Shown here piece after piece: positions 2,012-23,413 of a stretch of DNA of 64,000 bases (position 1 is its first letter; each line of letters opens with the position of its first letter). Origin of the DNA: Candidatus Beckwithbacteria bacterium GW2011_GWC1_49_16 (GTDB lineage: Bacteria; Patescibacteriota; Microgenomatia; UBA1400; CG1-02-47-37); contig CP011210.1 of the NCBI GenBank assembly GCA_001029675.1, positions 453,663 through 517,662 of the forward strand, written 5' to 3'. The notes beneath the pieces are model-generated. The model searched no databases, was not told the DNA's origin, and saw only the letters and a program-made list of their open reading frames with translations. Both the position numbers and the translations under genes were made by a program.

Positions 2012-2038
2012 CGTTTTAGTTTACCACGAGCGGTTATT

Positions 2039-2311: not shown

Positions 2312-2340
2312 CGCGGTTTTCGTTAATCTGGCTTCGTTTT

Positions 2341-2395: not shown

Positions 2396-2455
2396 CGGGT
2401 CTGGAACCCTTTAGTCCCATAACCAGTAACTTTCGTAGTGTATCATATCAAGGCT

Positions 2456-2498
2456 AAATGAGACAAATGAGACACTATAAAAAGGGGTGTCTCAAATG
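2456..2498. promoter_or_regulatory. operator-like array: two direct copies and one inverted copy of (A/T)TTGAGACA
   Basis: The sequence reads aaatGAGACAaatGAGACActataaaaaggggTGTCTCaaatg and lies about 75 nt upstream of the 2574 start codon. A TATAAA element sits between the half-sites. Confidence 0.4.
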
Positions 2499-2573
2499 CT
2501 AGTGATGTAGTTTGATATAGACAGCCTTGATATTGGAACTCACATCCTGTAAGTAATATACTTGAACTAATAT

Positions 2574-7119: not shown

Positions 7120-7120
7120 A

Positions 7121-8023
7121 TTATTTATTTAATAAGTTATAGGCACTCTTTATAAATTGTTTAGCATCATCTTTGGTCCAGTTTTGTTGTCCGTGGAATA
7201 AATATTTACATCCATTTACCTCACGCCACCTACAATCTTCAGAAAGAGTGTACTCGTCTTTTAGTAAATATGTCCACACCTCCTCACATCCTCTCAAAAC
7301 AATATCACGCCAAATCTCATTATTTGTGTAAATAGGATTGCTGACGTTATATGCCAAACTTTCAATCATGAATGATGGAAAGGGCGAGGTGTTGTTATTC
7401 TCAGAAAGGTGACCGTTAACATTTTTTAGAATACGTGCCACATTTTTAAATCGCTTCGAGGTCGAAGTATTTTTCTCAATTCCATTTTCAAGATGTTGAT
7501 CAGGGTAATTGAAATGTCTAATGCCATCAGGTCTGTTTAAAATTAACTGTATACCTTGGTTGTAATTTGTAGATCCAGTCGAATAATAATACCGATATGT
7601 GGTACATGGAATTATGTCAGCATCCAGTATCTTATCTGACCCTCTAATTTTGAAAACCTTATTACCTGATGAATCGACCAAGTTCTTCCCGAACTCAGTT
7701 TCTAGTGCTTTCTGTAAGCGAAGTTTAAAATCAATTTCTGAAATGCCTGTATAGCCGAAAAGACCAGTATTTGAAAATCCAACGCCTTCAGCATAGTTCA
7801 GGTTGATCATATCTTGTAGCTCAACAGCAATATCAATGTCTGAGTCATGTCTAACATTAGTATTATTTGGATAGGATCCTTTTGCAAAAACCCTAATACC
7901 CAAGTCACTCAAATGAGTATCAACAGCTGATTTAACAGTATCTTTTGTCTTTTCTGCTCTTTCCTCCTCGTTGTTAAACCAAGGTTTGATCCAGCCAGAT
8001 AGTTGATCATCGCTAATATTCAT
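7121..8023 (-). CDS. cGAS/DncV-like nucleotidyltransferase (CD-NTase, SMODS-type CBASS cyclase)
   Basis: 300 aa. It has the Pol-beta superfamily signature FAKGSYPNNTNVRHDSDIDIAV (GS...DxD) and a downstream third acidic residue (ILDADIIP). Its size and motif spacing are typical of CD-NTases. Confidence 0.7.
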   Translation of the reverse strand: MNISDDQLSGWIKPWFNNEEERAEKTKDTVKSAVDTHLSDLGIRVFAKGSYPNNTNVRHDSDIDIAVELQDMINLNYAEGVGFSNTGLFGYTGISEIDFKLRLQKALETEFGKNLVDSSGNKVFKIRGSDKILDADIIPCTTYRYYYSTGSTNYNQGIQLILNRPDGIRHFNYPDQHLENGIEKNTSTSKRFKNVARILKNVNGHLSENNNTSPFPSFMIESLAYNVSNPIYTNNEIWRDIVLRGCEEVWTYLLKDEYTLSEDCRWREVNGCKYLFHGQQNWTKDDAKQFIKSAYNLLNK

Positions 8024-8043
8024 AGATAGTTATTTTTTATTCA

Positions 8044-8253
8044 TCACTTTGCCTTACTCCTGTTATATGGATGCCTGTTGTGCGGCATAAGTGAAACATT
8101 TAAATCTTGAGCCTTAGCTTGTATCGCCCCAGGAGTTCTACTCATCTTTAATCCAATAACTCTCGTAGGGGTGTTACCTCTCGCGAGTTTTCGTAGTTGG
8201 GATTCCTGAGTCGGAGACCATTGTTTTCCTTGATTTGCTGGTTTCTTTGTCAT
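8044..8253 (-). CDS. small HTH DNA-binding protein resembling the GcrA N-terminal domain
   Basis: 69 aa. WSPTQESQLRKLARGNTPTRVIGLKMSRTPGAIQAKAQDLNVSL follows the W-x3-E...L-x2-L...G...I...L...R...A...AK...L pattern of GcrA-type or phage HTH proteins. Its start is 2 nt from the lexA stop and its stop is 20 nt upstream of the cyclase start. Confidence 0.45.
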   Translation of the reverse strand: MTKKPANQGKQWSPTQESQLRKLARGNTPTRVIGLKMSRTPGAIQAKAQDLNVSLMPHNRHPYNRSKAK

Positions 8254-8255
8254 AA

Positions 8256-8879
8256 TTAATCACCGCCTTTCTTAATAACATCCTCGACAACGCCTTGAAT
8301 AGAGAAGTCTTCAAATAATAATATTGGTTTATTTTTTGGGTTAGTAGATTCTGGTTGAAGACGTACGTAGCCATCTTCAGGAATTATCTTCTTAATTGTT
8401 GCCTCATCACCAATAAGTGCGACTACACGACTACCGGGGTCAGCTGTTTGCTGTTTTTTAATTAGGACAAAATCTCCATCATCAATTGTTTTTCCGGAAA
8501 CTCTGGCGTTATTCATACTGTCGCCTATTGCCCGTAGGAAAAAATAATTGTCCGGAGTTCCACTGATCTTCGAAGCATCAAATTGAATGTAGGCCTCAAC
8601 ATTTTCGGTAGCTAAGAATGGAACTCCACACGCTACATTGCCTACAAGGGGAATTTGTACTTTGTCAGATGAGTCCGGTAAAGCTAATCCTCGAGTATTT
8701 TCCAGATACCCCTTTTCTTTCAGTGCATCAGTGTGTCGCTGAACGGAGCTTATACTAGCTAAACCCAAGGTCACACGAAGTTCTTCAAGTGTGGGAGTTG
8801 TACCATTTTTATTTGCCTGATCCTTAATAGAAGACAGGACTATCTTTTGCTTTGAGGTTAAAGTCTTTCTCATACGCAC
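8256..8879 (-). CDS. lexA: LexA-like S24 autopeptidase repressor
   Basis: 207 aa. The N-terminus is a LexA-type winged helix (TPTLEELRVTLGLASISSVQRHTDALKEKGYLE). It has a VACG cleavage-site-like segment, the Ser nucleophile GDSM and a downstream KK. Confidence 0.85.
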   Translation of the reverse strand: MRMRKTLTSKQKIVLSSIKDQANKNGTTPTLEELRVTLGLASISSVQRHTDALKEKGYLENTRGLALPDSSDKVQIPLVGNVACGVPFLATENVEAYIQFDASKISGTPDNYFFLRAIGDSMNNARVSGKTIDDGDFVLIKKQQTADPGSRVVALIGDEATIKKIIPEDGYVRLQPESTNPKNKPILLFEDFSIQGVVEDVIKKGGD

Positions 8880-9084
8880 TATTCTACTCTAACTAGCGTA
8901 ATTATGCAAGGGGATTAGTTATTATAAAAAGCCTGTCAAGGGGGTAATTTCATCAAACAGTTTATAAATTGCTGTGTTGATTTAGCCCAATATATCGGTC
9001 TATTTATCATGTAACCCAGGGTTTCACCCACCCCTCCGTGTCACCCGGGCTATATCAAAACGGGGTGATATTGTTATCTTAATT
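8880..9084. promoter_or_regulatory. divergent promoter/operator region between the lexA operon and the ParB-MTase/terminase operon
   Basis: Contains ACAG-N11-CTGT (8957-8975) and CTGT-N20-ACAG, neither of which is a canonical SOS box. It also contains two direct TCACCC copies plus an inverted GGGTGA (9024-9068) just upstream of the 9085 start. Confidence 0.4.
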
Positions 9085-10407
9085 ATGAAAAACATACCTA
9101 TCCAAACGATCGAAGTTCCAATAATGGACCTAGTCTCACCAGACTACAATCCTCGTAAGCATGACGATCTGGCAAAGGAACAATTAAAAGAAAGTATCAG
9201 ACGCTTTGGGATCGTTGACCCAATTGTGGCAAACTCTGCACCAACTCGTAAAAATATAATCATCGGTGGAAATTTTAGATGGGAAACCATAAAGGAGTTG
9301 GGATATAAAACTGTTCCAGTCGTTTATGTAGATATTTCAGATCTGGAAAAGGAAAAAGAGTTGAACATTCGTCTCAATAAGAATACAGGTGAATTTGATT
9401 GGGATTTACTTGCTAAGTTTGATGAGTCATTCCTTGCTGATATTGGTTTTTCCAGTGGTGAACTCGATGGTATTTTTGATATTGACGTCCCAGAAGAATT
9501 CGACCTTGAAAAAGAACTTAAAAAGTTAAATATCCAGAAGATCAATGTTCAAAAAGGTGACATCTATTCTCTTGATGACTCAAAACTAATGTGTGGGGAT
9601 TCTACTATTGAAGCTGATATCTTAAAACTCATGGATGGTAAAAAAGCAGATATGTGTCTGACTGATGAACCATATTTGCTCGATTACGTTGGTGCAAAAC
9701 GTCACGGAAAACCAACAACTGGCTTTGGTGCCAAACGTAACAGAAGGTATCTTGAAACCGATGTTTTGCCGCCTAACTTTATATCCCTTTGGATGTCAAA
9801 TATCGCAAAGGTAGCAAAACCAGATTTCAGCATCATCTCGTACGAAAATTGGAAGAACACCCGAGCCATGTGGGACGAGATCGAGAAGTATTGGAAGGTG
9901 CGCAACATGCTGATATGGAGATTACCAAACAGACACCAGGGGTTTTCAGCTAAATATAAATTTTTCTCAAAATACGATATAGCTATGGTTGGAACAAGTG
10001 AGGGAAACCAAATAAATACAGAGGTGGAAGAAGAACTCCTGCAAAACGAATACGAAACCGCCTTGTATGCAACTTCAGGAAAGCCTCATTGGGAAGGCTA
10101 TGAACATGGAAAGAAGAATCAGCCAACCGATTTTATAGAGTTTAATGCTTCGGATGAAAAACACTCTGGTCAGGGAGTTGTGTTTGGCTGTAAGCCTACA
10201 GAGATTCTTATCCCCTATATCAAGATGCTTACAAAACGTGGCGATTTAATTGTCGAGCCATTTGGGGGAAGTGGAAGCACTCTAATTGCGGCCACCAAAA
10301 TGAAACGACGATGTTACATCATGGAAAAGTCTCCTGTATATACAGAGGTAATTATAAAACGCTGGGAAAATTTAACGGGACAAAAAGCCAAAAAAATCTA
10401 TGGATAA
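9085..10407 (+). CDS. ParB-like nuclease domain fused to a DNA methyltransferase (beta-class N6A/N4C)
   Basis: 440 aa. The N-terminus has a ParB/Srx fold (DYNPRKHD...IVDPIVAN...IIGGNFRWE). The C-terminus has a degenerate DPPY-type motif (TDEPYL) followed by an FGGSGST AdoMet-binding motif, in the permuted beta order. Phage and plasmid ParB-MTase fusions have this architecture. Confidence 0.75.
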   Translation: MKNIPIQTIEVPIMDLVSPDYNPRKHDDLAKEQLKESIRRFGIVDPIVANSAPTRKNIIIGGNFRWETIKELGYKTVPVVYVDISDLEKEKELNIRLNKNTGEFDWDLLAKFDESFLADIGFSSGELDGIFDIDVPEEFDLEKELKKLNIQKINVQKGDIYSLDDSKLMCGDSTIEADILKLMDGKKADMCLTDEPYLLDYVGAKRHGKPTTGFGAKRNRRYLETDVLPPNFISLWMSNIAKVAKPDFSIISYENWKNTRAMWDEIEKYWKVRNMLIWRLPNRHQGFSAKYKFFSKYDIAMVGTSEGNQINTEVEEELLQNEYETALYATSGKPHWEGYEHGKKNQPTDFIEFNASDEKHSGQGVVFGCKPTEILIPYIKMLTKRGDLIVEPFGGSGSTLIAATKMKRRCYIMEKSPVYTEVIIKRWENLTGQKAKKIYG

Positions 10408-10819
10408 CACTATCGAAAAAAGGCAATCAAAAAATAAAGAACAGCTGTTAGAGATACTAAAGAAAACTCCAATAGTTCAAATTGCCTGTGAAAAGGCTGG
10501 AGTAAGTCGAGCCACCTATTATCGATGGCGTAAAGATAACTCTGGATTTTCTCAGGCAAGTGATCAGGCATTATTAGATGGAAGCTTGCTGATAAATGAT
10601 ATGGCCGAAAGTCAAATGATAAGCGCTATCAAAGACAAGAATATGACTGCCATAATCTTTTGGCTTAAGACTCATCATGATGCCTATCGCAATAGAGTTG
10701 AAGTAACCACAACCAATGGCAACCAAGAAATTAACCTTACAGATGAACAAAAGGAACTGTTAAATAAAGCAATAGAGATGGCGGCATTAATTCCGCCCAA
10801 AGAAAACAGCAATGAATGA
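10400..10819 (+). CDS. terS: phage terminase small subunit (HTH type)
   Basis: 139 aa. It has an N-terminal HTH (IACEKAGVSRATYYRWRKDN) and directly precedes, and overlaps, the terminase large subunit. Confidence 0.65.
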   Translation: MDNTIEKRQSKNKEQLLEILKKTPIVQIACEKAGVSRATYYRWRKDNSGFSQASDQALLDGSLLINDMAESQMISAIKDKNMTAIIFWLKTHHDAYRNRVEVTTTNGNQEINLTDEQKELLNKAIEMAALIPPKENSNE

Positions 10820-12356
10820 CCAAGAACAAATAATCAAACAAATTCAGGAAAATCCTGACTTTCGGAAAGTATTAACGAAGGAGAATTTCTATTGGTTTTT
10901 TGTTACCTACTTTCCCCATTATATAACTTGCCCAACCGCTGATTTTCAAAAGGAAATCTTCAATCTCATTCAGAATGAGGAATTACAAAAAATCACAATC
11001 ACAGCCTTTCGCGGGTCGGCAAAATCTACTATTGCAACTTTGGCACTACCCATTTGGGCAATGGTCGGTAAACCCACCAAAAAATATACTCTACTAGTGA
11101 GCTTAACTCAGGGGCTTGCCAAGCAAATTCTTACGAACATAAAACAGGAGCTTTCATCAAACGAACTCCTAATGCGGGATTTTGGACCATTTTCAGAAGT
11201 GGCTGAAGAATGGCGATCTAACTCTCTTGTAATACCACGTTACAATTCCAGAATTTCAGCCATATCGCAAAGTGAAAGAATTAGAGGTCTCAGGCATAGG
11301 CAGTACCGACCAGACCTTATCATTATTGATGATGTTGAGGATCTAGAATCGGTTAAGACAAGAGAAAGCAGAGACAATCTTTGGAATTGGTTTTCGGGTG
11401 AAATAAAGCCTATTGGAGATAGTGGTACCAGAATTATTACCGTAGGCAATTTACTACATTTGGACTCGCTAATGATGCGGATTAAGCAAAACGTTCAAGC
11501 AGGCGCAATGGACGGTATTTATAAAGAATTTCCTTTGTTAGATAGTTATGGAAATATTGCCTGGCCTGGAAAATATCCGACTATGGAGGATATTGAAGCC
11601 AAAAGAAAAGATGTTGCCGACGAGGCAGCTTGGTATCGAGAATTTTTACTAAAAATTATTGCGGACGAAGACAGAATTGTTAAAGGAGCTTGGATTAAAT
11701 ACTACGACACCCTACCGGACTTTGATCGCTATCCGGCAAGATTAATTGCCATAGGAGTCGACTTGGCTATTTCTCTTTTGGCGTCAGCAAATTTAACAGC
11801 CTTAGTACCAGCATACATAGTTGGTTACGGAGACAATCTCCAAGTTTATATTTTGCCTTACATTTTAAACAAACGATTGGATTTTCCTCAAACTATTCAG
11901 GCAATTAAAATTCTTACTGAAAAACTAAAAGTCGGTTATAGACCGCACCCTAGGGTATATATAGAAAGCGTGGGGTATCAGAGTGCGGCTGCCCAACAAC
12001 TAATAGTAGAGCATGTTCTGGCCGAGGAAGTTAGAATTCCACAGTTAGACAAAAGATCAAGACTATCGATAATTTCTCCACTTATTGAGCAAGGCAAAGT
12101 ATTTTTTCCCAGATCAGGAGCTGAAGTGTTAATTGATCAATTACTGAACTTTGGAGTGGAAAAATACGATGATCTAGTTGATGCTTTCACCTTACTTATG
12201 TCAAAAATAATTGAAACAGACCACCCAACGAACAGAAGTACTCATTCAGATTTGCCACCAGAACCAGATCCACACCCTGGTTTGACATGGTCACTTGAAC
12301 ATATGAATGACTTAGGATTTGATCTTGAAACCATCAAACTAAATATGGTTTTCTAA
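10812..12356 (+). CDS. terL: phage terminase large subunit
   Basis: 514 aa with a Walker A (FRGSAKST), a Walker B (DLIIIDDVED) and a C-terminal RNaseH-like nuclease region. No portal or capsid genes follow. Confidence 0.85.
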   Translation: MNDQEQIIKQIQENPDFRKVLTKENFYWFFVTYFPHYITCPTADFQKEIFNLIQNEELQKITITAFRGSAKSTIATLALPIWAMVGKPTKKYTLLVSLTQGLAKQILTNIKQELSSNELLMRDFGPFSEVAEEWRSNSLVIPRYNSRISAISQSERIRGLRHRQYRPDLIIIDDVEDLESVKTRESRDNLWNWFSGEIKPIGDSGTRIITVGNLLHLDSLMMRIKQNVQAGAMDGIYKEFPLLDSYGNIAWPGKYPTMEDIEAKRKDVADEAAWYREFLLKIIADEDRIVKGAWIKYYDTLPDFDRYPARLIAIGVDLAISLLASANLTALVPAYIVGYGDNLQVYILPYILNKRLDFPQTIQAIKILTEKLKVGYRPHPRVYIESVGYQSAAAQQLIVEHVLAEEVRIPQLDKRSRLSIISPLIEQGKVFFPRSGAEVLIDQLLNFGVEKYDDLVDAFTLLMSKIIETDHPTNRSTHSDLPPEPDPHPGLTWSLEHMNDLGFDLETIKLNMVF

Positions 12357-12361
12357 CAACC

Positions 12362-12387
12362 ACAGAAAGACCCTTCGATCTTTCTGT
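12362..12387. terminator. bidirectional intrinsic terminator hairpin between convergent genes
   Basis: Perfect 9-bp stem ACAGAAAGA/TCTTTCTGT with an 8-nt loop. On the plus strand it is followed by ATGGTTTATTTTT. Confidence 0.6.
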
Positions 12388-12392
12388 ATGGT

Positions 12393-12911
12393 TTATTTTT
12401 CACCCTTAAGTTCTTTGTAGTAAGAGTCCTTAAGTGGGTACTCCTTATATGGTCCAAAAGCATATCCAACGGTTGCAACCATATGATCAGCTAGAAAAAC
12501 GGTATTCTTTTTTTTCCAGGTCTCTCGCTGTTCAACTGTGTAGTCGTAACTAAGCATTTTGGTATATTCAGCGTCGAGATCAAATGCTTTTTTGTCGTCA
12601 TATAGAGTGACGTTACATTTTTTCTTACAGCTCTTTTGGACTTCCTCTGCTATTCCCTCGGGATTGGTCTCTCCGGGTTTGATTAAAATGCTAATGTTTT
12701 CATCAGCTTTATTTTCGACTCTAGCCAAAATCTCGTATTCAAAGGCTGGTTTGGTAGTAGCTTCAGCAACCAATTCCTGTTTTTCAGGCGGGGTTTGAAT
12801 ACTGGCTTGGTCGGTAGAAGAGTCCTTACCAACGAGTCCCAAGACGATTATTAAGAGAAGTCCTCCTCCGATAATTAATAGTAATTTCTTCATATTCTCA
12901 CCTCCTTTCAA
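12393..12911 (-). CDS. hypothetical secreted or membrane-anchored protein
   Basis: 172 aa with an N-terminal signal anchor (KKLLLIIGGGLLLIIVLGLVG) and no lipobox Cys. Confidence 0.5.
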   Translation of the reverse strand: MKGGENMKKLLLIIGGGLLLIIVLGLVGKDSSTDQASIQTPPEKQELVAEATTKPAFEYEILARVENKADENISILIKPGETNPEGIAEEVQKSCKKKCNVTLYDDKKAFDLDAEYTKMLSYDYTVEQRETWKKKNTVFLADHMVATVGYAFGPYKEYPLKDSYYKELKGEK

Positions 12912-13009
12912 TGATGTTGTAATACTAACTTACATTTAAGCATATTTCAAGGCTAAATGCTCGCTTTAAGCTAGTGGTGCTCTAGCTCATGGCTATCAAT
13001 AATTAGGAC

Positions 13010-13222
13010 ATGGGCAAAATTACTAAGAATCAAGTAAAATTTGGACACAGAATTCAAAAGAGACGTCAGGGGCTTGGTATAACCCAGGAAGAACTCGCAG
13101 ACAGAGTAAGTCTAAGCAGAACACACATGGGACATATCGAACAAGGTAGGAGATCCCCTTCGCTTGAAGTCTTAAACAAGATTGCAAAAGCACTCAAAAC
13201 TTCCCCAAAAGATTTCTTTTAA
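13010..13222 (+). CDS. XRE-family HTH transcriptional regulator
   Basis: 70 aa. LGITQEELADRVSLSRTHMGHIEQGRRSPSLEVLNKIAKAL is a classic Cro/C1-type HTH. Confidence 0.75.
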   Translation: MGKITKNQVKFGHRIQKRRQGLGITQEELADRVSLSRTHMGHIEQGRRSPSLEVLNKIAKALKTSPKDFF

Positions 13223-13336
13223 TCCCGATTCATCTTCACTTTTTCAGGAAAAGCAATAATTATTTGGCGTCTCAAACTATTGAAAAATGGCAAAGATTTT
13301 TGTATGATATTGATATCAATTGGTAGGTAAATCTAT

Positions 13337-13504
13337 ATGGAAGAACTATTAACTCTCAAAGAAGCGGCACAAGTCTTAAAGGTTCATGCGAATACATTGC
13401 GTTTATGGGACAAAAAGGGTGTTCTGAAAGCTATACGTATTGGGGTAAAAAGGGTGAGAAGATATAAAAAGGAAGATATTGAAAAGTTTATACACAAGAA
13501 ATAA
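13337..13504 (+). CDS. small MerR/excisionase-type HTH protein, possible R-M controller
   Basis: 55-aa ORF not in the track because it is under 60 aa: MEELLTLKEAAQVLKVHANTLRLWDKKGVLKAIRIGVKRVRRYKKEDIEKFIHKK. It matches the AlpA/Xis/MerR-N HTH signature and ends 2 nt before the hsdR start. Confidence 0.55.
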   Translation: MEELLTLKEAAQVLKVHANTLRLWDKKGVLKAIRIGVKRVRRYKKEDIEKFIHKK

Positions 13505-13506
13505 TT

Positions 13507-16017
13507 ATGCAAAAAGAAGCAAAAGCACGGATCAAAATTAACAATCTTCTTCAGGAGTCCGGCTGGAGATTTTTTGATGATGAGCATGGAACGGCGAATA
13601 TAGTTCTAGAAAACAATGTCAAATTGACAAAGCAGGTAGTTGACGAATTAGGCAATGATTTTGATAAAACCAAGAACGGTTTCATAGATTTTCTTCTACT
13701 TGATGAAAAGTGTTTCCCTTATGCAGTGCTGGAAGCTAAATCTGAGGACAAAGATCCTCTAGATGGGAAAGAGCAGGCTAGAAGATACGCCCAGTCACAA
13801 AACGTTCGTTTTATTGTTCTTTCCAATGGTAATGTTCATTACTTCTGGGATTTAGAGCGAGGCAATCCATCTTTTATTTCCTCGTTTCCCACACAAGAAT
13901 CTCTCAAACATTTTGTTTCGTACAAGCCAGACTCTAAGAAATTGACAGAAGAAAAAGTTTCAGAAGATTACATAGCTTTAACTCAAAATCCTACATACCA
14001 AAAAGATCCTCGCTGGCAAGATGAGGTACTTAAACACGATCAAATTCAAGAACAGGATTTGAAGTTTCTACGCCCATATCAACTTAGGGCCATAACTGCT
14101 TTGCAAGAATCTGCCCAAAATGGCAATGACCGTTATCTTTTTGAAATGGCAACTGGTACCGGTAAGACTCTAACCTGTGCCGCCGTTATCAAGCTTTTCC
14201 TGAAAACTGGCAATGCCAAACGAATTCTCTTTTTAGTTGACCGTATTGAGTTGGAAGATCAGGCGGCCAAGAATTTCAAAAAATATTTGGCTAAAGATTT
14301 CACCAGCGTTATTTATAAAGAAAATCGTGATGATTGGCGTAAAGCTGAAATTGTGGTTTCGACTGTTCAAAGCCTTTCAACTAATAATAAATATCAGAAG
14401 TTATTTAATCCTACCGATTTTGATTTAATTATCTCTGACGAGGCACACCGTTCAATTGGTGGTAATAGTAGAGCTGTCTTTGAGTATTTCGTGGGTTACA
14501 AGCTAGGACTTACGGCTACGCCTAAAAACTACCTGAAAGGTATTGATCCAAATCAGCTTAATGCTCGTGATCCTCGGGCTTGGGAAAAACGTCAACTTCT
14601 AGATACCTATAAGACTTTTGGTTGTGAAACAGGAGAACCAACCTTCCGCTATAGTCTTCTTGACGGTGTCAAAGAAGGTTTTCTGGTCAACCCAATAGTT
14701 GCTGATGCCAGAACGGAGATTACTACACAACTCCTTTCTGATGAAGGGTATTCTCTTTTAGTTGATACAGAAGAAGGCAAAGAGGAACAAGTTTTTTATC
14801 AATCAGATTTTGAGCGAAAGTTTTTCTCTGACAAAACTAATCTAATTTTTTGTGAGACTTTCTTAAAGAATGCCTTGATGGATCAAATCTCTGGAGAGGT
14901 TGGCAAAAGCATTATTTACTGTGTGAGTCAAAAACATGCCAGTAAAATTACACAGCTTCTAAATCAGCTCGCTGATAGTTACTGGCCAGGAAAATATAAT
15001 TCCGATTTTGCTGTGCAGGTAACTTCTAATATTCCTGATGCTCAGCAATTCACAATAGGCTTTGCTAATAACAACCTTAATGGTCACACGCCTTGGCTGG
15101 AAGGTTATAAGTCCAGCAAAACTAGAGTTTGCGTGACGGTGGGTATGATGACTACTGGCTATGATTGCCAAGATATATTAAATCTTTGTTTAATGCGGCC
15201 AATTTTTTCCCCAACAGATTTCATTCAGATCAAAGGACGTGGTACACGAAAATACGCCTTTACCTTTGAAAATCGTGAGAATGGTGAAATTGAGAAAGTC
15301 AGGGTTGATAAAGAAAAATTCAAATTATTTGATTTCTTTGCTAACTGTGAGTATTTCGAAGAGAAATATAACTATGATGAAATTCTAAAAATTCCTAAGA
15401 CAATTTCGGGCACAGGACCAGGCGGAGAACCTACGGTTAATATTGATGTGACCATTGGTATCCCAGATCCTCTCAAAACATTCCAAGAAAAAGCGATTGG
15501 TTTACAAGGAATGAAAGTAGATCGCAAGATTTTTGAAAAGTTTGAGGAAACGGTTAAGGCAGATTCTTTCATCAAAGAAAAATACGAAGCTGGCGATATG
15601 CAGGCAGTTGAGGATTATGTGAAGACTGAGGTTTTTGATAAACCTGAAGATTATTTCAATTTAGACAAGCTTCGTAAATCAGTCAAGGTTGACCGTCGGC
15701 TTTCCCTGGGAGAAATAATGGATAAGATTTTTGGGCGGTTAGATAAATTTAAAGATAAAGATGAACTTTTAGAGGAAGAGTTTGAAAAGTTTATCTCAAT
15801 TTACAAGCCAGATAGTAAGTACTACTACCCAATAAAGAATTTCCTCAAAGCTTATATTACTGATAACGAGATTAGAGAAATTGTAGAAACAAAGGAATAC
15901 GGTCGGTTTGCAACAAACCCAAAAGTATCACTAGTAGACTTTAAGGCCTTGAACGGGTACCGTGACGTCGTGCCAGAGTATGTAAAGGACTACGTATCAG
16001 TTAATACGTATATGTAA
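13507..16017 (+). CDS. hsdR: type I restriction enzyme R subunit (short form)
   Basis: 836 aa. The N-terminus is an HsdR_N-type PD-(D/E)xK domain (IDFLLLDEKCFPYAVLEAKS). SF2 helicase motifs follow: GTGKT (Walker A), DLIISDEAHRS (DEAH), and TTGYDCQ motif VI. Confidence 0.8.
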   Translation: MQKEAKARIKINNLLQESGWRFFDDEHGTANIVLENNVKLTKQVVDELGNDFDKTKNGFIDFLLLDEKCFPYAVLEAKSEDKDPLDGKEQARRYAQSQNVRFIVLSNGNVHYFWDLERGNPSFISSFPTQESLKHFVSYKPDSKKLTEEKVSEDYIALTQNPTYQKDPRWQDEVLKHDQIQEQDLKFLRPYQLRAITALQESAQNGNDRYLFEMATGTGKTLTCAAVIKLFLKTGNAKRILFLVDRIELEDQAAKNFKKYLAKDFTSVIYKENRDDWRKAEIVVSTVQSLSTNNKYQKLFNPTDFDLIISDEAHRSIGGNSRAVFEYFVGYKLGLTATPKNYLKGIDPNQLNARDPRAWEKRQLLDTYKTFGCETGEPTFRYSLLDGVKEGFLVNPIVADARTEITTQLLSDEGYSLLVDTEEGKEEQVFYQSDFERKFFSDKTNLIFCETFLKNALMDQISGEVGKSIIYCVSQKHASKITQLLNQLADSYWPGKYNSDFAVQVTSNIPDAQQFTIGFANNNLNGHTPWLEGYKSSKTRVCVTVGMMTTGYDCQDILNLCLMRPIFSPTDFIQIKGRGTRKYAFTFENRENGEIEKVRVDKEKFKLFDFFANCEYFEEKYNYDEILKIPKTISGTGPGGEPTVNIDVTIGIPDPLKTFQEKAIGLQGMKVDRKIFEKFEETVKADSFIKEKYEAGDMQAVEDYVKTEVFDKPEDYFNLDKLRKSVKVDRRLSLGEIMDKIFGRLDKFKDKDELLEEEFEKFISIYKPDSKYYYPIKNFLKAYITDNEIREIVETKEYGRFATNPKVSLVDFKALNGYRDVVPEYVKDYVSVNTYM

Positions 16018-16022
16018 ATATT

Positions 16023-19000
16023 ATGTTAACTCAAGAAACAAAACGAAAAATAGATTCAGCCAGAGATATCCTGGTTGGTAAAGTTCCTGATCCTAAAGCT
16101 CAAGTTGAACAAATTACAACAGCCATGATCTATAAATTCATGGATGATATGGATAAAGATGCTGTGGAACTTGGAGGCAAAGCTCGCTTCTTTACTAATG
16201 GATTTGAAAAATATGCTTGGAGCAAACTTTTAGATTCTAGATTGGGTGGACACGAACGATTAGACCTTTACGCTGAAGCCATAGTACAGATGTCCAGTAA
16301 TCCCCATATTCCCCAATTATTTAGGGATATTTTTAAGGACGCATTTCTACCATATCGTAGTCCGGAAACATTGAGCTTATTCCTTAAGGAGATCAACAGT
16401 TTTACATACGATCATAGTGAGGATTTAGGTGATGCTTTTGAGTATCTACTTTCTATCATGGGTTCCCAAGGAGATGCTGGGCAGTTTCGTACTCCACGTC
16501 ACATAATCGATTTTATAGTAGCTGTAGTTGATCCCAAAAAAGACGATTCAATTTTGGACCCTGCTTGTGGAACTGCTGGATTTTTAATCTCTGCATATAA
16601 ACACATTCTCAAACAACACGATGGTAGGGATGATCCGAAACATAAAGAAAAACCGTTAACACCTGACGACAAAAAGCGATTAATGAACAATCTTTTCGGC
16701 TACGATATTAGTCCTGACATGGTTAAGCTCTCCAAAGTAAACATGTACCTGCATGGCTTTGCTGAACCCAAGATTTTTGAATATGACACTCTTTCTAGCG
16801 ATGAAAAATGGGACGAGACATATGACGTAATTATGGCAAACCCACCATTTATGACTCCAAAAGGCGGCATACGCCCACACAAGCGGTTCAGCGTACAAGC
16901 AAATCGTGCCGAAGTGCTGTTTGTGGATTATATTAAAGAACACCTACGGCCGAATGGTCGAGCGGGAATTATTGTACCTGAGGGGATCATTTTTCAGTCA
17001 GGCAATGCATATAAACAACTCCGTAAAATGTTAGTTGAAGATGGTCTGTTTGCGGTAGTTTCATTACCTAATGGAATATTCAATCCTTACTCTGGGGTAA
17101 AGACAAGTATTTTGTTTTTTGATAATGTGTTAGCAAAAAGAACAAATGAAATATTGTTCGTAAAAATTGACAGCGATGGATTTGACCTCGGAGCTCAAAG
17201 AAGGAAAATTGAAAGTAATGACCTCACTGCCGCCCTGATAATTTTGAAGAAATATATAGAGGACCCCAACACTACTCTCCTAATCGAAGTAAAAAACTTA
17301 GCCACCTTGGTTTCAAAAACAAGAATTTCTGAGAAGGGTGATTATAACTTGAGTAGTGATGAATACAAACAAACCGAAGTAATAAGCAACAAGAGATGGC
17401 CAATGAAGGAATTGGGAAGTTTATTCGAAATGATAAACGGGAGAGCATTTAAAAAAGAAGAATGGAAAACCAACGGAACGCCCATTATCCGAATAGCAAA
17501 TCTCAATGACAATAATGCTGAATTCAATTATTTTGAAGGAAATTGTGATGATAAAATTATTGTCAAAAATGGCGACCTACTTTTTTCCTGGTCAGGAACT
17601 CGTGGCACTTCATTCGGCCCACATATATGGAATAGAGGCAAGGGTGTTCTTAATCAACACATATATAAATTTCAACCCTTACAAGGAGATATAGATATTG
17701 CTTTTGCTTATCTTGTTATAAAAATAATTGTTCCCGAGATCGAAGCCCAAGCTCATGGTGCTGGGGGTCTGGTACATATTACGAAAGAAAAACTTAAACA
17801 TTTTAGAATTCCTGTTCCACCACTTCCTGTTCAAAAGCAAATAGTTGAACAAATTGAAGGTTATCAAAAGATCATTGAGGGAGCAAAACAAGTTGTAAAA
17901 AATTGGAAACCAATAACTGATATCAATCCTGATTGGGAAACAGCACTGATCCAGGATCTTTGTACTTTGGTGCGTGGTAGTTCACCTAGGCCTAAAGGAG
18001 ATAAACGGTATTACGATGGAAAAATCCCCAGACTGATGGTCTCAGACGTAACTAGAGATGGCATGTATACAACTCCCCAAACTGATTCGCTTACAGAAGA
18101 AGGATCTAAGCTTAGTCGTCCAATGAAAAAGGGTGAAGTTGTAATGGCTGTAAGCGGTAATCCAGGGTTGCCAACAATTCTTACAGTTGACGCATGTATC
18201 CATGACGGTTTTGTCGGATTTAGAAAGCTGTCCAGTAAAATAATTCCAGAATTTCTATATTTTATACTTTTGCGCCAAAAGGATGAAAATAACTCTCGAT
18301 CAGTTGGTGCAGTATTTAAAAATCTAACTACAGACCAAATAAAGAAGTTTAAGATTCCTGTCCCCCCTATCAATATCCAACTTGAATTAGTTGAACAAAT
18401 AACCCAAGAGCGTCAGGTTGTTGGTGCCAATGAAGAAATCATCAGAGAGTATGAGGCTAAAATTCAGAACGAGATAAAGGATGTTAATGATGGAAAAGCA
18501 CACTCTCCCCTAAGTAAGAATCAAAATGAACTAATTAAACAGCTTAAGGACGACTTTGAGTCAATTGAGTCAGAAGTTATTAGGATGATGGGCAACAAGG
18601 AGATATTCAAAGAGATTATTGAGATCTCTAAAAGAAATAGCCAGATAAATAAGGGTAACTCCCTGTGGGACTTTCTAAAAGAAAGTTATGTTGCACTAAT
18701 GGTGTCTGCGGTTTGTAGGCAAATTGATACAGACGAACGTTCGTCTAGCTTGGTAAATCTTTTAAGAACAATTCTTTTTAACCCGACAGTTATCCAGAGC
18801 TTAAACAAGGACTGGTATAGCGAACAATATCATCGCGATAACGACATCTTTCCAGGTTTCATGGAAGGAATCGGGAAGGGTGATTTTGAGGAACACTTTG
18901 GTTCAAAAGAATATGTAGATCCAGCTATCGTTTACATGGATCTAAAGAAGCTAGAGGAAGATACAAAAGAAATAAAGAAATACCGCAATAAAAGAATTGC

Positions 19001-19184
19001 CCATTTTGATAAAAAGGAATCACTTTTCAAAGCAAATTATGATGATTTGCATAAAGCAGTAGAAACTGTACGATCAATCGCAAGTAAATATTACTTACTG
19101 CTTAAACAGGGTGGCAATGATCTTATTCCGTCTGATCAAACCGATTGGCAGGAGATACTAACAATTCCCTGGATCAAAAAATAA
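16023..19184 (+). CDS. hsdMS: type I R-M HsdM-HsdS fusion with a C-terminal HEPN/Abi-like domain
   Basis: 1053 aa. The N-terminus is an N6-adenine MTase (DPACGTAGFL motif I; MANPPF motif IV). Two HsdS target-recognition domains follow (LGSLFEMINGRAFKKEEW...NQHIYKF; LCTLVRGSSPRP...FILLRQK) around a central conserved helix. The extra C-terminal domain of about 250 aa contains RNKRIAHFD (R-x5-H). Confidence 0.8.
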   Translation: MLTQETKRKIDSARDILVGKVPDPKAQVEQITTAMIYKFMDDMDKDAVELGGKARFFTNGFEKYAWSKLLDSRLGGHERLDLYAEAIVQMSSNPHIPQLFRDIFKDAFLPYRSPETLSLFLKEINSFTYDHSEDLGDAFEYLLSIMGSQGDAGQFRTPRHIIDFIVAVVDPKKDDSILDPACGTAGFLISAYKHILKQHDGRDDPKHKEKPLTPDDKKRLMNNLFGYDISPDMVKLSKVNMYLHGFAEPKIFEYDTLSSDEKWDETYDVIMANPPFMTPKGGIRPHKRFSVQANRAEVLFVDYIKEHLRPNGRAGIIVPEGIIFQSGNAYKQLRKMLVEDGLFAVVSLPNGIFNPYSGVKTSILFFDNVLAKRTNEILFVKIDSDGFDLGAQRRKIESNDLTAALIILKKYIEDPNTTLLIEVKNLATLVSKTRISEKGDYNLSSDEYKQTEVISNKRWPMKELGSLFEMINGRAFKKEEWKTNGTPIIRIANLNDNNAEFNYFEGNCDDKIIVKNGDLLFSWSGTRGTSFGPHIWNRGKGVLNQHIYKFQPLQGDIDIAFAYLVIKIIVPEIEAQAHGAGGLVHITKEKLKHFRIPVPPLPVQKQIVEQIEGYQKIIEGAKQVVKNWKPITDINPDWETALIQDLCTLVRGSSPRPKGDKRYYDGKIPRLMVSDVTRDGMYTTPQTDSLTEEGSKLSRPMKKGEVVMAVSGNPGLPTILTVDACIHDGFVGFRKLSSKIIPEFLYFILLRQKDENNSRSVGAVFKNLTTDQIKKFKIPVPPINIQLELVEQITQERQVVGANEEIIREYEAKIQNEIKDVNDGKAHSPLSKNQNELIKQLKDDFESIESEVIRMMGNKEIFKEIIEISKRNSQINKGNSLWDFLKESYVALMVSAVCRQIDTDERSSSLVNLLRTILFNPTVIQSLNKDWYSEQYHRDNDIFPGFMEGIGKGDFEEHFGSKEYVDPAIVYMDLKKLEEDTKEIKKYRNKRIAHFDKKESLFKANYDDLHKAVETVRSIASKYYLLLKQGGNDLIPSDQTDWQEILTIPWIKK

Positions 19185-19185
19185 T

Positions 19186-19833
19186 ATGTTGGGTCAAGAT
19201 GTGACTAATAATAACCAGATACAAACATTTATAAGTTCAAATCAATTATGGATTGGTATCGTTTTGGGTTGGCTGCTCACAAGAGTCATGGAGATGTTAC
19301 GTAAACCCTCTATAAGTTTTGGACCTGCTAACGATTCTGAATTCGTTAGAGGGAATAAAAAATTTAAGTTTATAAATGTCACAGTTAAAAACGCTAAGCA
19401 AAATTTTCTGAAGAAATTTTTCTTCGGTAATCCAAGCTTAAATAATGCAAGAGTTTGGGTATCTTTTAAAGACTTTACATCTAACATTGAAATATTAAAA
19501 ATAAATGGTAGATGGGCTTCGACTAAGGAACCTGTAGATTACAGCTCAGGACAACCATTAATTGCAGAGATTCTTCTTCCTTCCCGAGATACGATTCCAC
19601 AAGGAGAAGAAGCCAATATATCAATAGCTATAAAGGAGTCTACAGAAGATTCTTTTTTTGCCTTCAACAATGATAGTTACTTGTACAACTGGAAAAATCC
19701 AGATTTTGAGCTTAAAGATAATAAATATTGGTTAGAAATACGTCTTCTGGCTGATGGAAATGAATATATTGGAAAATTTTTGTTTTCCAATCCATCAAAA
19801 AGTCTTAAAAACTTTAAGATTCACGAATCATAA
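19186..19833 (+). CDS. hypothetical protein trailing the R-M operon
   Basis: 215 aa. It starts 2 nt after the hsdMS stop and has one N-terminal hydrophobic helix. The region is AT-rich. Confidence 0.45.
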   Translation: MLGQDVTNNNQIQTFISSNQLWIGIVLGWLLTRVMEMLRKPSISFGPANDSEFVRGNKKFKFINVTVKNAKQNFLKKFFFGNPSLNNARVWVSFKDFTSNIEILKINGRWASTKEPVDYSSGQPLIAEILLPSRDTIPQGEEANISIAIKESTEDSFFAFNNDSYLYNWKNPDFELKDNKYWLEIRLLADGNEYIGKFLFSNPSKSLKNFKIHES

Positions 19834-19924
19834 TAATTACGGCTTATACTCATCAACCACGCCGTAAAGCAATTTGAAGAGTAACCCCTTTTGAGCCTAG
19901 ACTTCCACGACCCTTCCCGGTACC

Positions 19925-21280
19925 TTGTACCCTGAAATGAGTACAACATACAACCAAAATACGACGATAGAGCCACCAAAAATCGAATATTGCCTCTATG
20001 CACGAAAATCTTCGGAATCTGATGAACGTCAGGCAATGTCCATCGATTCTCAAATCGACGAAATGCTGACTCTGGCTAAGAGAGATAATCTCAAAATTAA
20101 GGAGGTTAAGAAAGAAAGTCATTCAGCCAAAATGTCTGGCTCCAGGCCAGTGTTTACTCAACTTCTTCAAGAACTACGCCAAAAGAAATTTAATGGGATT
20201 CTCACTTGGGCTCCTGACAGATTAAGTAGAAATGCTGGCGATTTGGGATCTGTAGTTGATCTTATGGATCAGGGAAAGCTAATAAAAATTCAAACCTACT
20301 CACAGAGCTTCTCGAATAGCCCAAACGAGAAATTCTTACTCATGATTCTCTGCTCTCAAGCAAAGCTTGAAAACGACAACAAAGGTCTAAATGTCCAACG
20401 AGGACTACGAACTAAGTGTGCGATGGGCTGGAGACCCAGCATAGCCCCCGCAGGATACCTTAATCAGGCTGGCGATGGTCATAAGGATGAACTCATCATT
20501 CTCGATCCCGAACGATCATCTTTCATTGCTCAAATGTTCGAAAGAGTTGGGCATCAAGGCCATAGTGGTCGAGCGATTAAGAATTGGCTTGATAGGATAG
20601 GATTCACAACCAGATTAGGAAACAAGATGCCACTAAGCAAAGTCTACTCAACACTTAATAACCCCTTTTACTATGGAGAATTTGAATTCCCAGTCGGCAG
20701 TGGAACTTGGTATCAAGGAAAACATAAACCCTTGGTTACAAAAGAATTATTCGACAAGGTTCAAGAAGTCCTCATGGTTCCACCCAAAAGTTATCACAAC
20801 AAGATATTTCCATTTAAGAGTATCTTTCGGTGTGGGGGTTGCGGAGGTGGAGTAACGGCTGAAGAAAAAATCAGAAAATTAAAACACGGCGGGTATGCCA
20901 AACATACCTATTATCACTGCGGCAGATCTCTCAATTATGAATGTGACGAGCCATATATTACAGAAGATGACTTAGTAAAACAGTTAATTGCTAATATCGA
21001 TAAAATCAAATTTAATCATACGGGGGTAACAAGAAAAATTCAGGAAGATATTGAACGGTACCACAGACTCAAAACTCAAGTACTTCATCAGGAATTTATA
21101 GATGGACACTTAGCTGAATTTAACAGAATTCCCCAGACTTCAGCTGATAAAAATGAAATGACCAAAAACTATCTATTACACATCTTGCAGATCGGAACAG
21201 CTGAGGAGCGACAGGAAGCTCTCTCATTCATTAAAACAAAATTTATTCTGTCAAAAAGAGCAATAACAATACAAAAATAG
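19925..21280 (+). CDS. large serine recombinase (integrase type)
   Basis: 451 aa. It has a resolvase catalytic N-domain (YCLYARKSSESDERQAMSIDSQ), a recombinase domain, and a zinc ribbon (CGGCGG...HCGRS...C). It lies next to the tRNA-Glu 3' end. Confidence 0.85.
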   Translation: MYPEMSTTYNQNTTIEPPKIEYCLYARKSSESDERQAMSIDSQIDEMLTLAKRDNLKIKEVKKESHSAKMSGSRPVFTQLLQELRQKKFNGILTWAPDRLSRNAGDLGSVVDLMDQGKLIKIQTYSQSFSNSPNEKFLLMILCSQAKLENDNKGLNVQRGLRTKCAMGWRPSIAPAGYLNQAGDGHKDELIILDPERSSFIAQMFERVGHQGHSGRAIKNWLDRIGFTTRLGNKMPLSKVYSTLNNPFYYGEFEFPVGSGTWYQGKHKPLVTKELFDKVQEVLMVPPKSYHNKIFPFKSIFRCGGCGGGVTAEEKIRKLKHGGYAKHTYYHCGRSLNYECDEPYITEDDLVKQLIANIDKIKFNHTGVTRKIQEDIERYHRLKTQVLHQEFIDGHLAEFNRIPQTSADKNEMTKNYLLHILQIGTAEERQEALSFIKTKFILSKRAITIQK

Positions 21281-21455
21281 CCTCAACACCAAGACTGGTG
21301 TTCTTCTCGTGGCTTAAATGCAGGGGAAAAATAGAGGGAAATCTGTGTATTACAGGATCTAAAACGACATTTCGAACAATTCGATCAAAGATTAGCAAGC
21401 AACATCGGGCTTTTCAGCGCAGGCCAACGGGTCGCGCTGAACCTTACGATATATG

Positions 21456-21527
21456 TGACCCCACAGGGAATCGAACCCTGGTTTTCAGGATGAAAACCTG
21501 ATGTCCTAACCGCTAGACGATGGGGCC
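21456..21527 (-). tRNA. tRNA-Glu (UUC)
   Basis: Cloverleaf folded by hand from the reverse complement: GGCCCCA/TGGGGTC acceptor, TCAGG-TTTTCAT-CCTGA anticodon arm (anticodon TTC), T-loop TTCGATT. 72 nt with no encoded CCA. Confidence 0.85.
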
Positions 21528-21556
21528 CTTCGGCAAGCTCAGGGCTAAAGCCCTGG

Positions 21557-21628
21557 TGAGCCCGGAAGGGATCGAACCTTCGACGCACAGATTAAAAGTC
21601 TGTCGCTCTACCACTGAGCTACGGGCCC
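21557..21628 (-). tRNA. tRNA-Lys (UUU)
   Basis: The reverse complement GGGCCCGTAGCTCAGTGGTAGAGCGACAGACTTTTAATCTGTGCGTCGAAGGTTCGATCCCTTCCGGGCTCA folds as a tRNA with anticodon loop CTTTTAA. 72 nt. Confidence 0.85.
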
Positions 21629-22078: not shown

Positions 22079-23413
22079 TCAATACACCTTCCATACTCTT
22101 TTAGAGCCCACAGAGATATCGAATTTCCCAACTGCCACTGGCTGGTCGAGCATAACTATATGTCTGACTTCAGGGTTATACCAATAGCTTTTGTTCAGAG
22201 TGCCGCTGTAAACAAAGTAAGCAATACCTAGCTGTTGGAACAGGCTTTCCGTCATGTAGCCCACCATGGCCGGGTTTTCTACCTCGTCAAAGTGAGCATG
22301 GGCGTGAATTAAGAAAGAGTTGTTTTTTTTACTAAAAACTGGAATACCTAATAAACCCTGTTGATAAGCATAGACAAAGTTATCCCCGGCCTTCTCGATG
22401 CCATAATATTCGTTGTCCAGGTAATTAACCCCGGTGCTAATAAAATTGTTTCTATCAGAATGCCAAATACTCACTTTTCTCATTTCCATCTCAAACATCT
22501 TAGACCTGTTTTCTGGAGTGTAGTAGGCGTACGGACCAATTACCCCAAGGACTCGTCTAAAGATGTAATCGGAGATGTTTGGGGCAAAGACGTCGATTTC
22601 TGCTGGTCCATCAGATTGAAGTATCTCGTCATAAATTTTATAACTTTCCGGCGCCACAAATACAGGATCCTCGTGCACTACTCCTTTGTTTTTTAATCGT
22701 TCTTGCTCGAGCACAGCGCCAGAGAGGTAATCGCCAAATTTCTTCCCTCTAATACTGTAAAATACATCCCGAAGTTGTTCGACCTTATCTAAAACATCTT
22801 GAGGAATCAGTTCGTATGACAAATATTTGAAAGGTTTGGTTTCTCTTCCTAGGTTATTTTTTAGGTATCTGCCGGCGATAAAAACAACCATATCTTCGGT
22901 TACCCCTGACCAACTAAGCATTGTGGCCAGGGTGGGAATTCCAAGCGAGTACCGATGGACCGTATCTCGTGATAAAGACGACTCGCCTTCTAGGTATGCC
23001 CTGTCTAAAAATTGGTCCATTTCTGTCTCAGTCATCCCTTTTAAGGTACGATGATGGATTTTAAATTTCTCCTGTCGAGCTAGTTTTTTTAAATTTTTAT
23101 CATAAACAGAGTCGTTTTGAAAACTTAGCGGCCTTCCTGTAAAGATAGCCCTTGTGTGATTTGAAAGTTCTTTAATTGCGTCTTGATTGTAATAGGTTAT
23201 ATCGTCCTCGGAGAAAAAGTAGACCTCAGACTGGTGGGTTATTTGTTGTAAGTGGTTGACTAGAGTAGTTTTGCCAATCCCTCTAAAGCCCTCAATAATC
23301 ACCAGTTGTTTGTTGTCTGTGGGGGAATTTTGGAAAATATCAAGCACGGCTACTGCCAATTCCTTTTGGCTAGTTGTCAGCTCGATCGGTGATTGATGAA
23401 GCAGGTCTTTCAT
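22079..23413 (-). CDS. P-loop ATPase (AAA / Arch-ATPase-like) with an uncharacterised C-terminal domain
   Basis: 444 aa. It has a Walker A (IIEGFRGIGKTTLVNHL) and a Walker-B-like hydrophobic-strand-D segment. Cassette cargo. Confidence 0.6.
   Translation of the reverse strand: MKDLLHQSPIELTTSQKELAVAVLDIFQNSPTDNKQLVIIEGFRGIGKTTLVNHLQQITHQSEVYFFSEDDITYYNQDAIKELSNHTRAIFTGRPLSFQNDSVYDKNLKKLARQEKFKIHHRTLKGMTETEMDQFLDRAYLEGESSLSRDTVHRYSLGIPTLATMLSWSGVTEDMVVFIAGRYLKNNLGRETKPFKYLSYELIPQDVLDKVEQLRDVFYSIRGKKFGDYLSGAVLEQERLKNKGVVHEDPVFVAPESYKIYDEILQSDGPAEIDVFAPNISDYIFRRVLGVIGPYAYYTPENRSKMFEMEMRKVSIWHSDRNNFISTGVNYLDNEYYGIEKAGDNFVYAYQQGLLGIPVFSKKNNSFLIHAHAHFDEVENPAMVGYMTESLFQQLGIAYFVYSGTLNKSYWYNPEVRHIVMLDQPVAVGKFDISVGSKRVWKVY

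Follow-up and report, generated by a model that had tools for sequence, protein, structure and literature searches.

An AbiU2-family HEPN domain fused to the methylase-specificity protein of a type I restriction-modification system in a Candidatus Beckwithbacteria genome

In the window analysed here, a stretch of 64,000 nucleotides from contig CP011210.1 of Candidatus Beckwithbacteria bacterium GW2011_GWC1_49_16, one uninterrupted reading frame of 1053 codons at 16023..19184 (+) encodes a DNA methylase, a specificity part with two target-recognition domains (TRDs) and a C-terminal domain of the AbiU2 family of HEPN proteins (Table 1). The gene, hsdMS-HEPN, lies between hsdR and a gene of 215 codons (orf215), with gaps of 5 nt and 1 nt, respectively, and no terminator-like site between the genes. 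An earlier note on this DNA, made from the letters alone, had described the product as a fusion of HsdM and HsdS with an extra C-terminal HEPN/Abi-type domain; this description was confirmed, and the domain could be assigned to AbiU2. The HEPN_AbiU2 profile (PF18734) matched residues 840-1042 over profile positions 3-190 of 193 (E 4e-12). The gathering cut-off of 26.8 bits was exceeded both by the whole protein, at 46.4 bits, and by the C-terminal domain scanned alone, at 52.3 bits (E 6e-14); judged by these scores, the match is far above chance. The stretch RNKRIAH, which had been read as an Rx4-6H motif, is indeed of this type (Rx5H), with a polar residue after the arginine (R988-N-K-R-I-A-H994). 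The profile search that had been proposed as a check thus agrees with a HEPN/Abi family, and a C-terminus made of an HsdS coiled coil or HsdM-interaction region without Rx4-6H does not fit these results. Only the size had been overstated, since the extra region measures ~215-225 aa rather than ~250 aa.

The remainder of the protein likewise agreed with the earlier note, as Pfam, PADLOC and the motif positions all recovered a gamma-class N6-adenine methyltransferase (N6A MTase) with DPACGTAGFL and NPPF, followed by two TRDs. PADLOC MTase_I matched aa 1-455 (E 1e-97), Pfam Methylase_S matched two stretches of the fusion protein, the first from aa 457, and PADLOC Specificity_I matched both halves of the specificity (S) part, with conserved PVPP-helix segments at aa 597-628 and 779-821. 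The product of the adjacent hsdR matched NCBIfam restrict_EcoAI (768 positions; E 2e-69) and the PADLOC REase_I model (807 positions), carries the motifs IDFLLLD...LEAKS (PD-(D/E)xK-like), GTGKT and DEAH, and is 82-98% identical in the related loci L003-L006. Its 836 aa had been considered unusually short, but by comparison with these profiles the length is normal for the EcoAI/FtnUII family of type I R subunits. An HsdR nuclease region with a superfamily 2 motor, an N6A MTase and a two-TRD specificity part are all present, and the locus is therefore predicted to encode a complete type I restriction-modification (R-M) system with intact R, M and S motifs. Separate M and S subunits, as in the classical R2M2S1 arrangement, were not found, M and S being encoded in one reading frame. 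This is the layout of Type IMS systems (Roberts et al. 2012, PMC3510504), which share the methylase and two TRDs in one chain, the separate HsdR and the absence of hsdM from the operon, and whose name comes from an engineered EcoKI version that restricts and modifies in vivo (PMC3510504). The window protein differs from Type IMS in having ~225 more residues, the AbiU2-type HEPN region, past the last helix of the S part.

Table 1. Positions of the fusion gene, its parts and the neighbouring features in the window.
Feature	Position	Strand	Remarks
hsdMS-HEPN fusion gene	16023..19184	+	1053 aa; deposited as AKM79275.1 'N-6 DNA methylase'
HsdM part, gamma-class N6-adenine methyltransferase	16023..17387	+	Pfam N6_Mtase aa 133-455, E 1e-56
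HsdM motif I DPACGTAGFL	16557-16586	+	aa 179-188
HsdM motif IV NPPF	16839-16850	+	aa 273-276
TRD1	17391..17822	+	Pfam Methylase_S aa 457-623
Central conserved helix of S part	17811..17906	+	PVPP...QKIIEGAKQVV segment kept in protein alignment
TRD2	17922..18377	+	PADLOC Specificity_I aa 634-794
C-terminal conserved helix of S part	18357..18485	+	ordinary M-S fusions stop shortly beyond; protein alignment
Variable linker (DVNDGKAHSPLSKNQ...), S helix to first HEPN helix	18480..18539	+	protein and DNA alignments
AbiU2-family HEPN domain	18540..19181	+	aa 840-1053; PF18734
RNKRIAH motif (R988-x5-H994), predicted active site	18984..19004	+	aa 988-994
XRE/Cro-type helix-turn-helix (HTH) protein, 70 aa	13010..13222	+	Pfam HTH_3 E 3e-15; same position in L003, L004
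MerR/HTH_17 protein, 55 aa	13337..13504	+	Pfam HTH_17 E 2e-11; ends 2 nt before hsdR
hsdR, EcoAI-like (type IB-like) restriction/translocase subunit, 836 aa	13507..16017	+	Pfam ResIII, HSDR_N, HSDR_N_2, Helicase_C
orf215 (AKM79276.1, hypothetical)	19186..19833	+	215 aa; begins 1 nt past fusion stop; N-terminal segment moderately hydrophobic
Large serine recombinase, right end of island	19925..21280	+	Pfam Resolvase, Recombinase, Zn_ribbon_recom
tRNA-Glu and tRNA-Lys	21455-21628		adjoin recombinase
Small and large terminase subunits	10400-12356		phrog_38 E 2.5e-76
ParB_N domain fused to N6/N4 DNA methylase	9085-10407		directly 5' of terminase genes; conserved in L003, L004
CBASS (cyclic-oligonucleotide-based anti-phage signalling system) oligonucleotide cyclase	7121-8023	-	PADLOC Cyclase E 5e-100
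CBASS 2TM/Cap15-type effector	6493-7119	-	E 2e-37
DUF5677 protein	3215-4012	-	

That a frameshift or missed stop codon has made two genes appear joined, as an artefact of assembly or sequencing, is extremely improbable. The identical 1053-aa protein (GenBank AKM79275.1) was recovered from more than one source, Candidatus Beckwithbacteria bacterium GW2011_GWB1_47_15 and GWC1_49_16, and is present on 58 contigs, the longest of ~1.05 Mb, and independent assemblies contain unbroken fusions of 1041-1088 aa. The cases that could speak for an artefact are L002, which has a 5'-truncated copy of the fusion gene, and L017, in which the gene is split in two. The split hsdMS-HEPN of L017 (4542-7231) consists of two overlapping ORFs (open reading frames; 4542-5462, and 5459 onward), a split that may reflect a frameshift, phase variation or an error in the sequence. 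Full-length triple fusions were also found in P0036 (98% identical), P0037 (79%), P0038 (72%), P0039 (69%) and P0040 (62%), together with a 1067-aa Candidatus Roizmanbacteria protein (KKP68451.1), and at least six diverged clusters (62-98% identity) in Beckwithbacteria and Roizmanbacteria retain the fusion. The AbiU2 tail is shared by only about six to eight clusters of M-S proteins. In comparison, the whole-protein search gave at least 8000 matches at E <= 1e-50, and the 120 best matches listed, from bacteria and archaea, were mostly of 794-873 aa with ~78% query coverage and comprised M and two TRDs without the tail; by these matches, an M-S fusion of ~830 aa is ordinary and very common.

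Proteins closely related to the tail (61-73% identical; ~31 close clusters) nearly always stand alone, with a length of 224-234 aa. Homology to the free-standing AbiU2-like genes starts at about aa 831 of the fusion protein, and at the DNA level the similarity begins about five codons inside those genes. A terminator-like hairpin lies 5' of the free-standing start in L001 and L009, and in the fusions this region is replaced by the coding linker. Since the fused domains form one clade beside their free-standing homologues in a neighbour-joining tree, a single capture of a free-standing ~225-aa AbiU2-family gene is likely. Among the fused proteins the HEPN domain is 79-93% identical and the region of the C-terminal helix and linker 37-85%, while TRD1 is only 14-26% identical and thus appears to have been swapped; TRD2 has been exchanged in L005 (33% identity). 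The ratio of non-synonymous to synonymous divergence (dN/dS, Nei-Gojobori) was 0.027-0.054 for the HEPN domain, at dS 0.7-1.7, and 0.03-0.04 for the methylase domain. By these ratios, the fused domain is under strong purifying selection, matching that on the methylase domain.

These comparisons bear on the possibility that the fusion is a passive one of independent defence modules, in which an AbiU2-led cassette landed behind hsdMS and was joined to it by the loss of its own start and of the stop that preceded it. The fused domain would then respond to a trigger of its own, independently of R-M, just like a free-standing AbiU2-like protein. Such an origin is consistent with free-standing proteins of ~225 aa being the rule, both in the close clusters and among the best 150 of 2209 family members, nearly all of which measure 210-240 aa. 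It is also consistent with the variable genes that follow fused and free-standing versions alike at 1-7 nt or overlapping, namely orf215, a 275-aa ORF and genes for a DUF4160 protein, a helicase, PDC-S06 and an AriA-like protein (the free-standing genes being trailed at 1-4 nt or overlapping), and with L001, in which a close free-standing homologue paired with an orf215 homologue adjoins a canonical, unfused type I system. However, at least six lineages have kept the fusion through near-saturated synonymous divergence and several TRD exchanges with no reversion, the domain is selected as strongly as the methylase, and in P0041 and P0042 the junction carries another tail (see below). We therefore regard a purely passive fusion as rather unlikely.

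The family to which the tail belongs is large and mostly free of such fusions. A profile search of 1.84 billion representatives returned 2209 proteins at E <= 1e-3, 1101 of them at E <= 1e-10, and PF18734 was matched by 106 of 111 family representatives; the few longer AbiU2-like proteins have unrecognised N-terminal regions and no R-M domains. No homologues were found in phage collections, plasmid collections or IMG/VR. The wider family is only 25-40% identical overall, yet His994 is present in all 151 of the representatives compared, and Ala993 (97%), Ser909 (96%) and Arg899 (94%) are nearly as constant. Within the motif of the same 151 proteins, an Asp or Asn occupies position 989, a Lys or Arg is found at position 990 in 87%, and Arg991 is kept in 59%; in 30 close homologues YRNKR[IV]AH is invariant. 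The active site of the family may not coincide with the canonical Rx4-6H, as R899 and S909 are distant from the motif yet 94-96% conserved. A further link of the family to R-M is seen in L016 (340-3268), where only 4 nt separate a distant free-standing AbiU2-like gene (42% identical) from a downstream gene for a type III Res-like helicase (PADLOC REase_III E 7e-92). The domain profile also matched Las1 weakly (E 0.037), and this candidate was rejected: the match covers aa 151-228 of the chain, presumably outside the HEPN domain of Las1.

An AlphaFold2 model of the domain, built from a 111-sequence alignment, was confident (pLDDT 94.4, pTM 0.91) and all-alpha. In domain numbering it comprises a long helix (3-42), a second helix (51-71), a helical insert (81-130), a kinked helix (138-164) that terminates with the motif, a loop (165-176) of which H165 is the first residue, a further helix (177-199) and a short C-terminal helix. 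The predicted placement of the motif, at a helix end and loop start before a long helix, with an insert between helices 2 and 3, resembles the published description of the HEPN active site (PMC3710099).

The earlier note had suggested that the system may couple restriction to an RNase-type suicide response. In the form considered here, the tail would be a latent RNase back-up that answers to changes in the R-M complex, a plausible inference to which we assign a probability of roughly one half. An M-S protein probably captured, on one occasion, a free-standing gene of the AbiU2 family, a type of HEPN gene that is frequent in elements like this one, and the resulting domain is attached through a short variable linker to the last conserved helix of the specificity part. 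According to the coupled reading, the domain would constitute a latent metal-independent RNase and second line of defence. HEPN nucleases generally work as dimers, and for this reason the domain may be silent in the resting complex. Activation would follow a change in the R-M complex, either two M-S protomers meeting, or an anti-restriction DNA mimic or unmodified DNA on the M-S core. A two-TRD M-S fusion without a separate hsdM may moreover assemble as two chains and in this way unite two HEPN domains. For the engineered EcoKI M-S fusion, which required extra HsdM in vitro, an (MS)2 form was raised as possible, though less likely (PMC3510504), and the C-terminus of EcoKI HsdS is reported to tolerate fusion to green fluorescent protein. 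The proposed logic is that of PrrC/EcoprrI and Ronin, except that the effector would be covalently joined to the sensor. HEPN genes often accompany R-M systems and have been read as PrrC-like back-ups (PMC3710099; PMC12839542). The free-standing AbiU2-like genes beside the canonical type I system of L001 and beside the type III Res-like gene of L016 also speak for the coupled reading.

Several points weigh against the coupled reading. The linker is variable, and the coupling of the domain to the R-M core may therefore be loose. Across the wider family, R988 of the Rx5H motif is found in only 35 of the 151 representatives (23%), the position being otherwise mostly Ala or Val. Foldseek comparison of the domain model with PDB and BFVD gave no significant HEPN match, and sequence profiles built from 30 and from 111 domain sequences gave no meaningful match in PDB; the structure prediction that the earlier note had called for yielded a confident all-alpha fold but no significant match to solved HEPN structures. 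In the literature searched, we found no RNase activity or other biochemistry for any AbiU2-family member. The lactococcal AbiU2 is non-toxic in E. coli (PMC3985639) and does not suffice for defence, since AbiUii lowers the resistance conferred by AbiUi, AbiU now being regarded as a one-gene system (PMC13064643). Finally, most AbiU2-like homologues are free-standing and act without fusion to R-M, and M-S fusions without an AbiU2 domain number in the thousands.

Some of these observations would suit a domain that cuts no RNA and serves as a regulatory or assembly module, dimerising two M-S chains or tuning restriction as AbiUii dampens AbiUi. Dimerisation would supply the second methylase that is missing from a two-TRD M-S fusion. 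HEPN domains generally dimerise, and no separate hsdM was found on the ~20-kb island that carries the locus, where the only other methylase is the ParB-N6_N4_Mtase protein. The need of the engineered EcoKI M-S protein for extra HsdM in vitro (PMC3510504), the poor conservation of the motif arginine across the family, the non-toxic AbiU2 (PMC3985639) and the lowering of resistance by AbiUii (PMC13064643) point in the same direction. On the other hand, thousands of natural M-S fusions of ~830 aa manage without such a domain, RN-x4-H is invariant in close homologues, and the 94-100% conservation of His994, Ala993, Arg899 and Ser909 resembles that of an active or ligand-binding site, which makes a purely non-catalytic role improbable in our judgement.

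The junction at which the AbiU2 domain is attached is also used by another tail. P0041 and P0042 (L006 9491-10414) have the same HsdMS backbone followed, at the same junction, by an unrelated region of ~300 aa. Its Cys-rich segments with CxxC resemble zinc ribbons, and its YDFSF...AEVKS motif recalls those of PD-(D/E)xK nucleases; this ~300-aa tail of P0042 had no match in Pfam, PADLOC or PDB. In L006 the gene with the alternative tail is followed by an orf215 homologue (87% identical). The occurrence of an unrelated tail at the same junction suggests an effector slot at the HsdMS C-terminus. We tentatively propose, as a possibility short of even odds, that in mobile elements of Candidate Phyla Radiation (CPR) bacteria this C-terminus is a docking point for interchangeable effectors, with the M-S core sensing and gating a toxic nuclease. 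The core would sense unmodified DNA, complex collision or anti-restriction mimics, and the arrangement would, if true, constitute a single-polypeptide 'guard' that combines restriction and abortive infection on the modification subunit.

A second variable position lies directly 3' of the fusion, where the gene differs by locus. It is orf215 in the window, a 1140-aa ORF in L003, an AAA_13 / PDC-S06 ATPase with DUF4365 and a Cas4-like nuclease in L004, L007 and L002, and an AriA/PtuA-like ATPase with a Cas4-like fragment in L005 (10270-12152). In these relatives the slot contains further defence candidates. Where it spans 10223-14044 of L004 and 3823-7645 of L007, the Cas4-like protein is of the PD-(D/E)xK type, and the proximity of an AAA_13 ABC ATPase to a HEPN domain tethered to R-M is reminiscent of PrrC/RloC in split form. 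Two ORFs of 754 aa, one after L016 and one after L004, were compared and are not the same gene, one encoding the type III Res-like helicase and the other the AAA_13 / PDC-S06 ATPase.

Of the systems described so far, the locus is a member of the Type IMS and AbiU2 families and resembles PrrC/RloC, Ronin and other HEPN fusions only in logic. The tail agrees with AbiU2/PF18734 (Lactococcus lactis AbiUii; Anantharaman et al. 2013) in the full-length profile match, the invariant His, Rx5H and the all-alpha fold, and differs in that the family, listed as occurring in R-M operons (PMC3710099), is normally free-standing with ~210-235 aa, whereas the window domain is covalently linked to a methylase/specificity protein. 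Fusions of HEPN domains to methylases were not observed in the 2013 HEPN survey (PMC3710099), to which the window protein is a counter-example. No description of an HsdS- or HsdM-HEPN fusion was found in the literature searched; the fusion sequence itself is already public, with its Pfam domains precomputed.

PrrC-EcoprrI and RloC likewise pair a HEPN-type nuclease with a type I R-M enzyme, for which it presumably serves as a second line of defence. In contrast to the window protein, in which the link is covalent and the HEPN family a different one, they have an N-terminal ATP-binding cassette (ABC) ATPase domain and bind R-M non-covalently. Neither Pfam nor PADLOC detected an ATPase domain in the 1053-aa protein or orf215, and among the related loci the AAA_13 ABC-ATPase is encoded downstream only in L004, L007 and L002. 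In Ronin (bioRxiv 10.1101/2023.04.06.535777), an HsdM/HsdS core is similarly proposed to hold a toxic effector that is freed by binding of an anti-restriction protein. However, most Ronin-encoding E. coli genomes are without hsdR and RonA is a separate 61-aa membrane peptide, whereas at the window locus HsdR is intact, the putative HEPN effector is fused and no small ronA-like gene was recognised, the downstream gene encoding 215 aa without a family match. HEPN fusions to R-M helicases, nucleases and ATPases (e.g. HEPN-DUF499 and Hma/BREX-related) also place HEPN in an R-M-like component and are read as suicide back-ups, but they involve restriction, helicase or ATPase subunits and not, as here, the modification/specificity subunit.

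If the M-S core does gate the domain, the protein would represent the simplest physical form of layered immunity, with restriction and abortive infection, sensor and effector, in one chain. The PrrC-type 'guarded nuclease' idea would become easy to dissect by point mutants, the published view that HEPN fusions in R-M systems are confined to restriction, helicase or ATPase subunits would be corrected, and the AbiU2 family, with more than 2000 sequence clusters at 50% identity, would gain its first functional handle. If the fusion is passive, the consequence is a minor annotation fix from 'N-6 DNA methylase' to 'HsdMS-AbiU2 fusion'.

No Pfam, PADLOC or PHROG match was obtained for orf215, which is probably a co-transcribed cargo gene or optional partner and not a fixed component. 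Its homologues (70-87% identical) follow the free-standing AbiU2-like gene in L001 and the differently tailed HsdMS gene in L006, and orf215 homologues follow free-standing AbiU2-like genes in both L001 and L015. An obligate partnership with the HEPN domain was rejected, since the family is also found without a nearby AbiU2 gene. The orf215 family comprises ~32 clusters of 200-230 aa, and those with a named source come from CPR bacteria, apart from one labelled Pseudomonadales. Members occur after AbiU2-like genes, after HsdMS or alone (window 19186-19833, L001 8686-9312, L018, L019, L021 and L022), and in L018 and L019 the gene is followed by conserved ORFs of ~248 and ~296 aa.

The locus lies in a low-G+C island at ~2.0-21.4 kb of the window (2000-21450; ~19-20 kb), with 36-43% G+C against ~50-55%. 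The serine recombinase at its right end is 96-98% identical in L003 and L007, and the backbone recurs in the metagenomic contigs L003, L004, L007 and L011 in the shared order ParB-methylase, small terminase (TerS), large terminase (TerL), two HTH genes, HsdR, tailed HsdMS, cargo and recombinase. The 70-aa HTH protein is possibly a controller or element regulator. The MerR/HTH_17 gene is found directly 5' of hsdR in L003, L004 and L005, and 5' of hsdM in L001. The ParB-methylase may be an orphan methylase that shields the element's own DNA. Besides the two-gene CBASS and the DUF5677 protein, the island encodes a LexA-like repressor, and apart from the terminase genes no phage structural or virion genes were recognised on it. 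Overall, the island has the appearance of an integrative mobile element laden with defence genes, akin to a satellite or a degraded prophage, from CPR bacteria of the Microgenomates group; CPR bacteria with tiny genomes thus harbour mobile islands rich in such genes.

The DUF5677 protein of the island was considered as a relative of the AbiU2 domain and rejected (hhalign probability 0.3%). Other DUF5677 proteins are encoded close to recombinases and genes of the orf215 family in L018 (6783-7000) and L022 (6792-7601). Outside the island, a second patch of lower G+C content (39-44%) past the tRNA genes contains a gene for a 444-aa P-loop ATPase (22079-23413, minus strand) with weak AAA_14, AAA_16 and nSTAND3 matches, which may be another foreign or defence gene.

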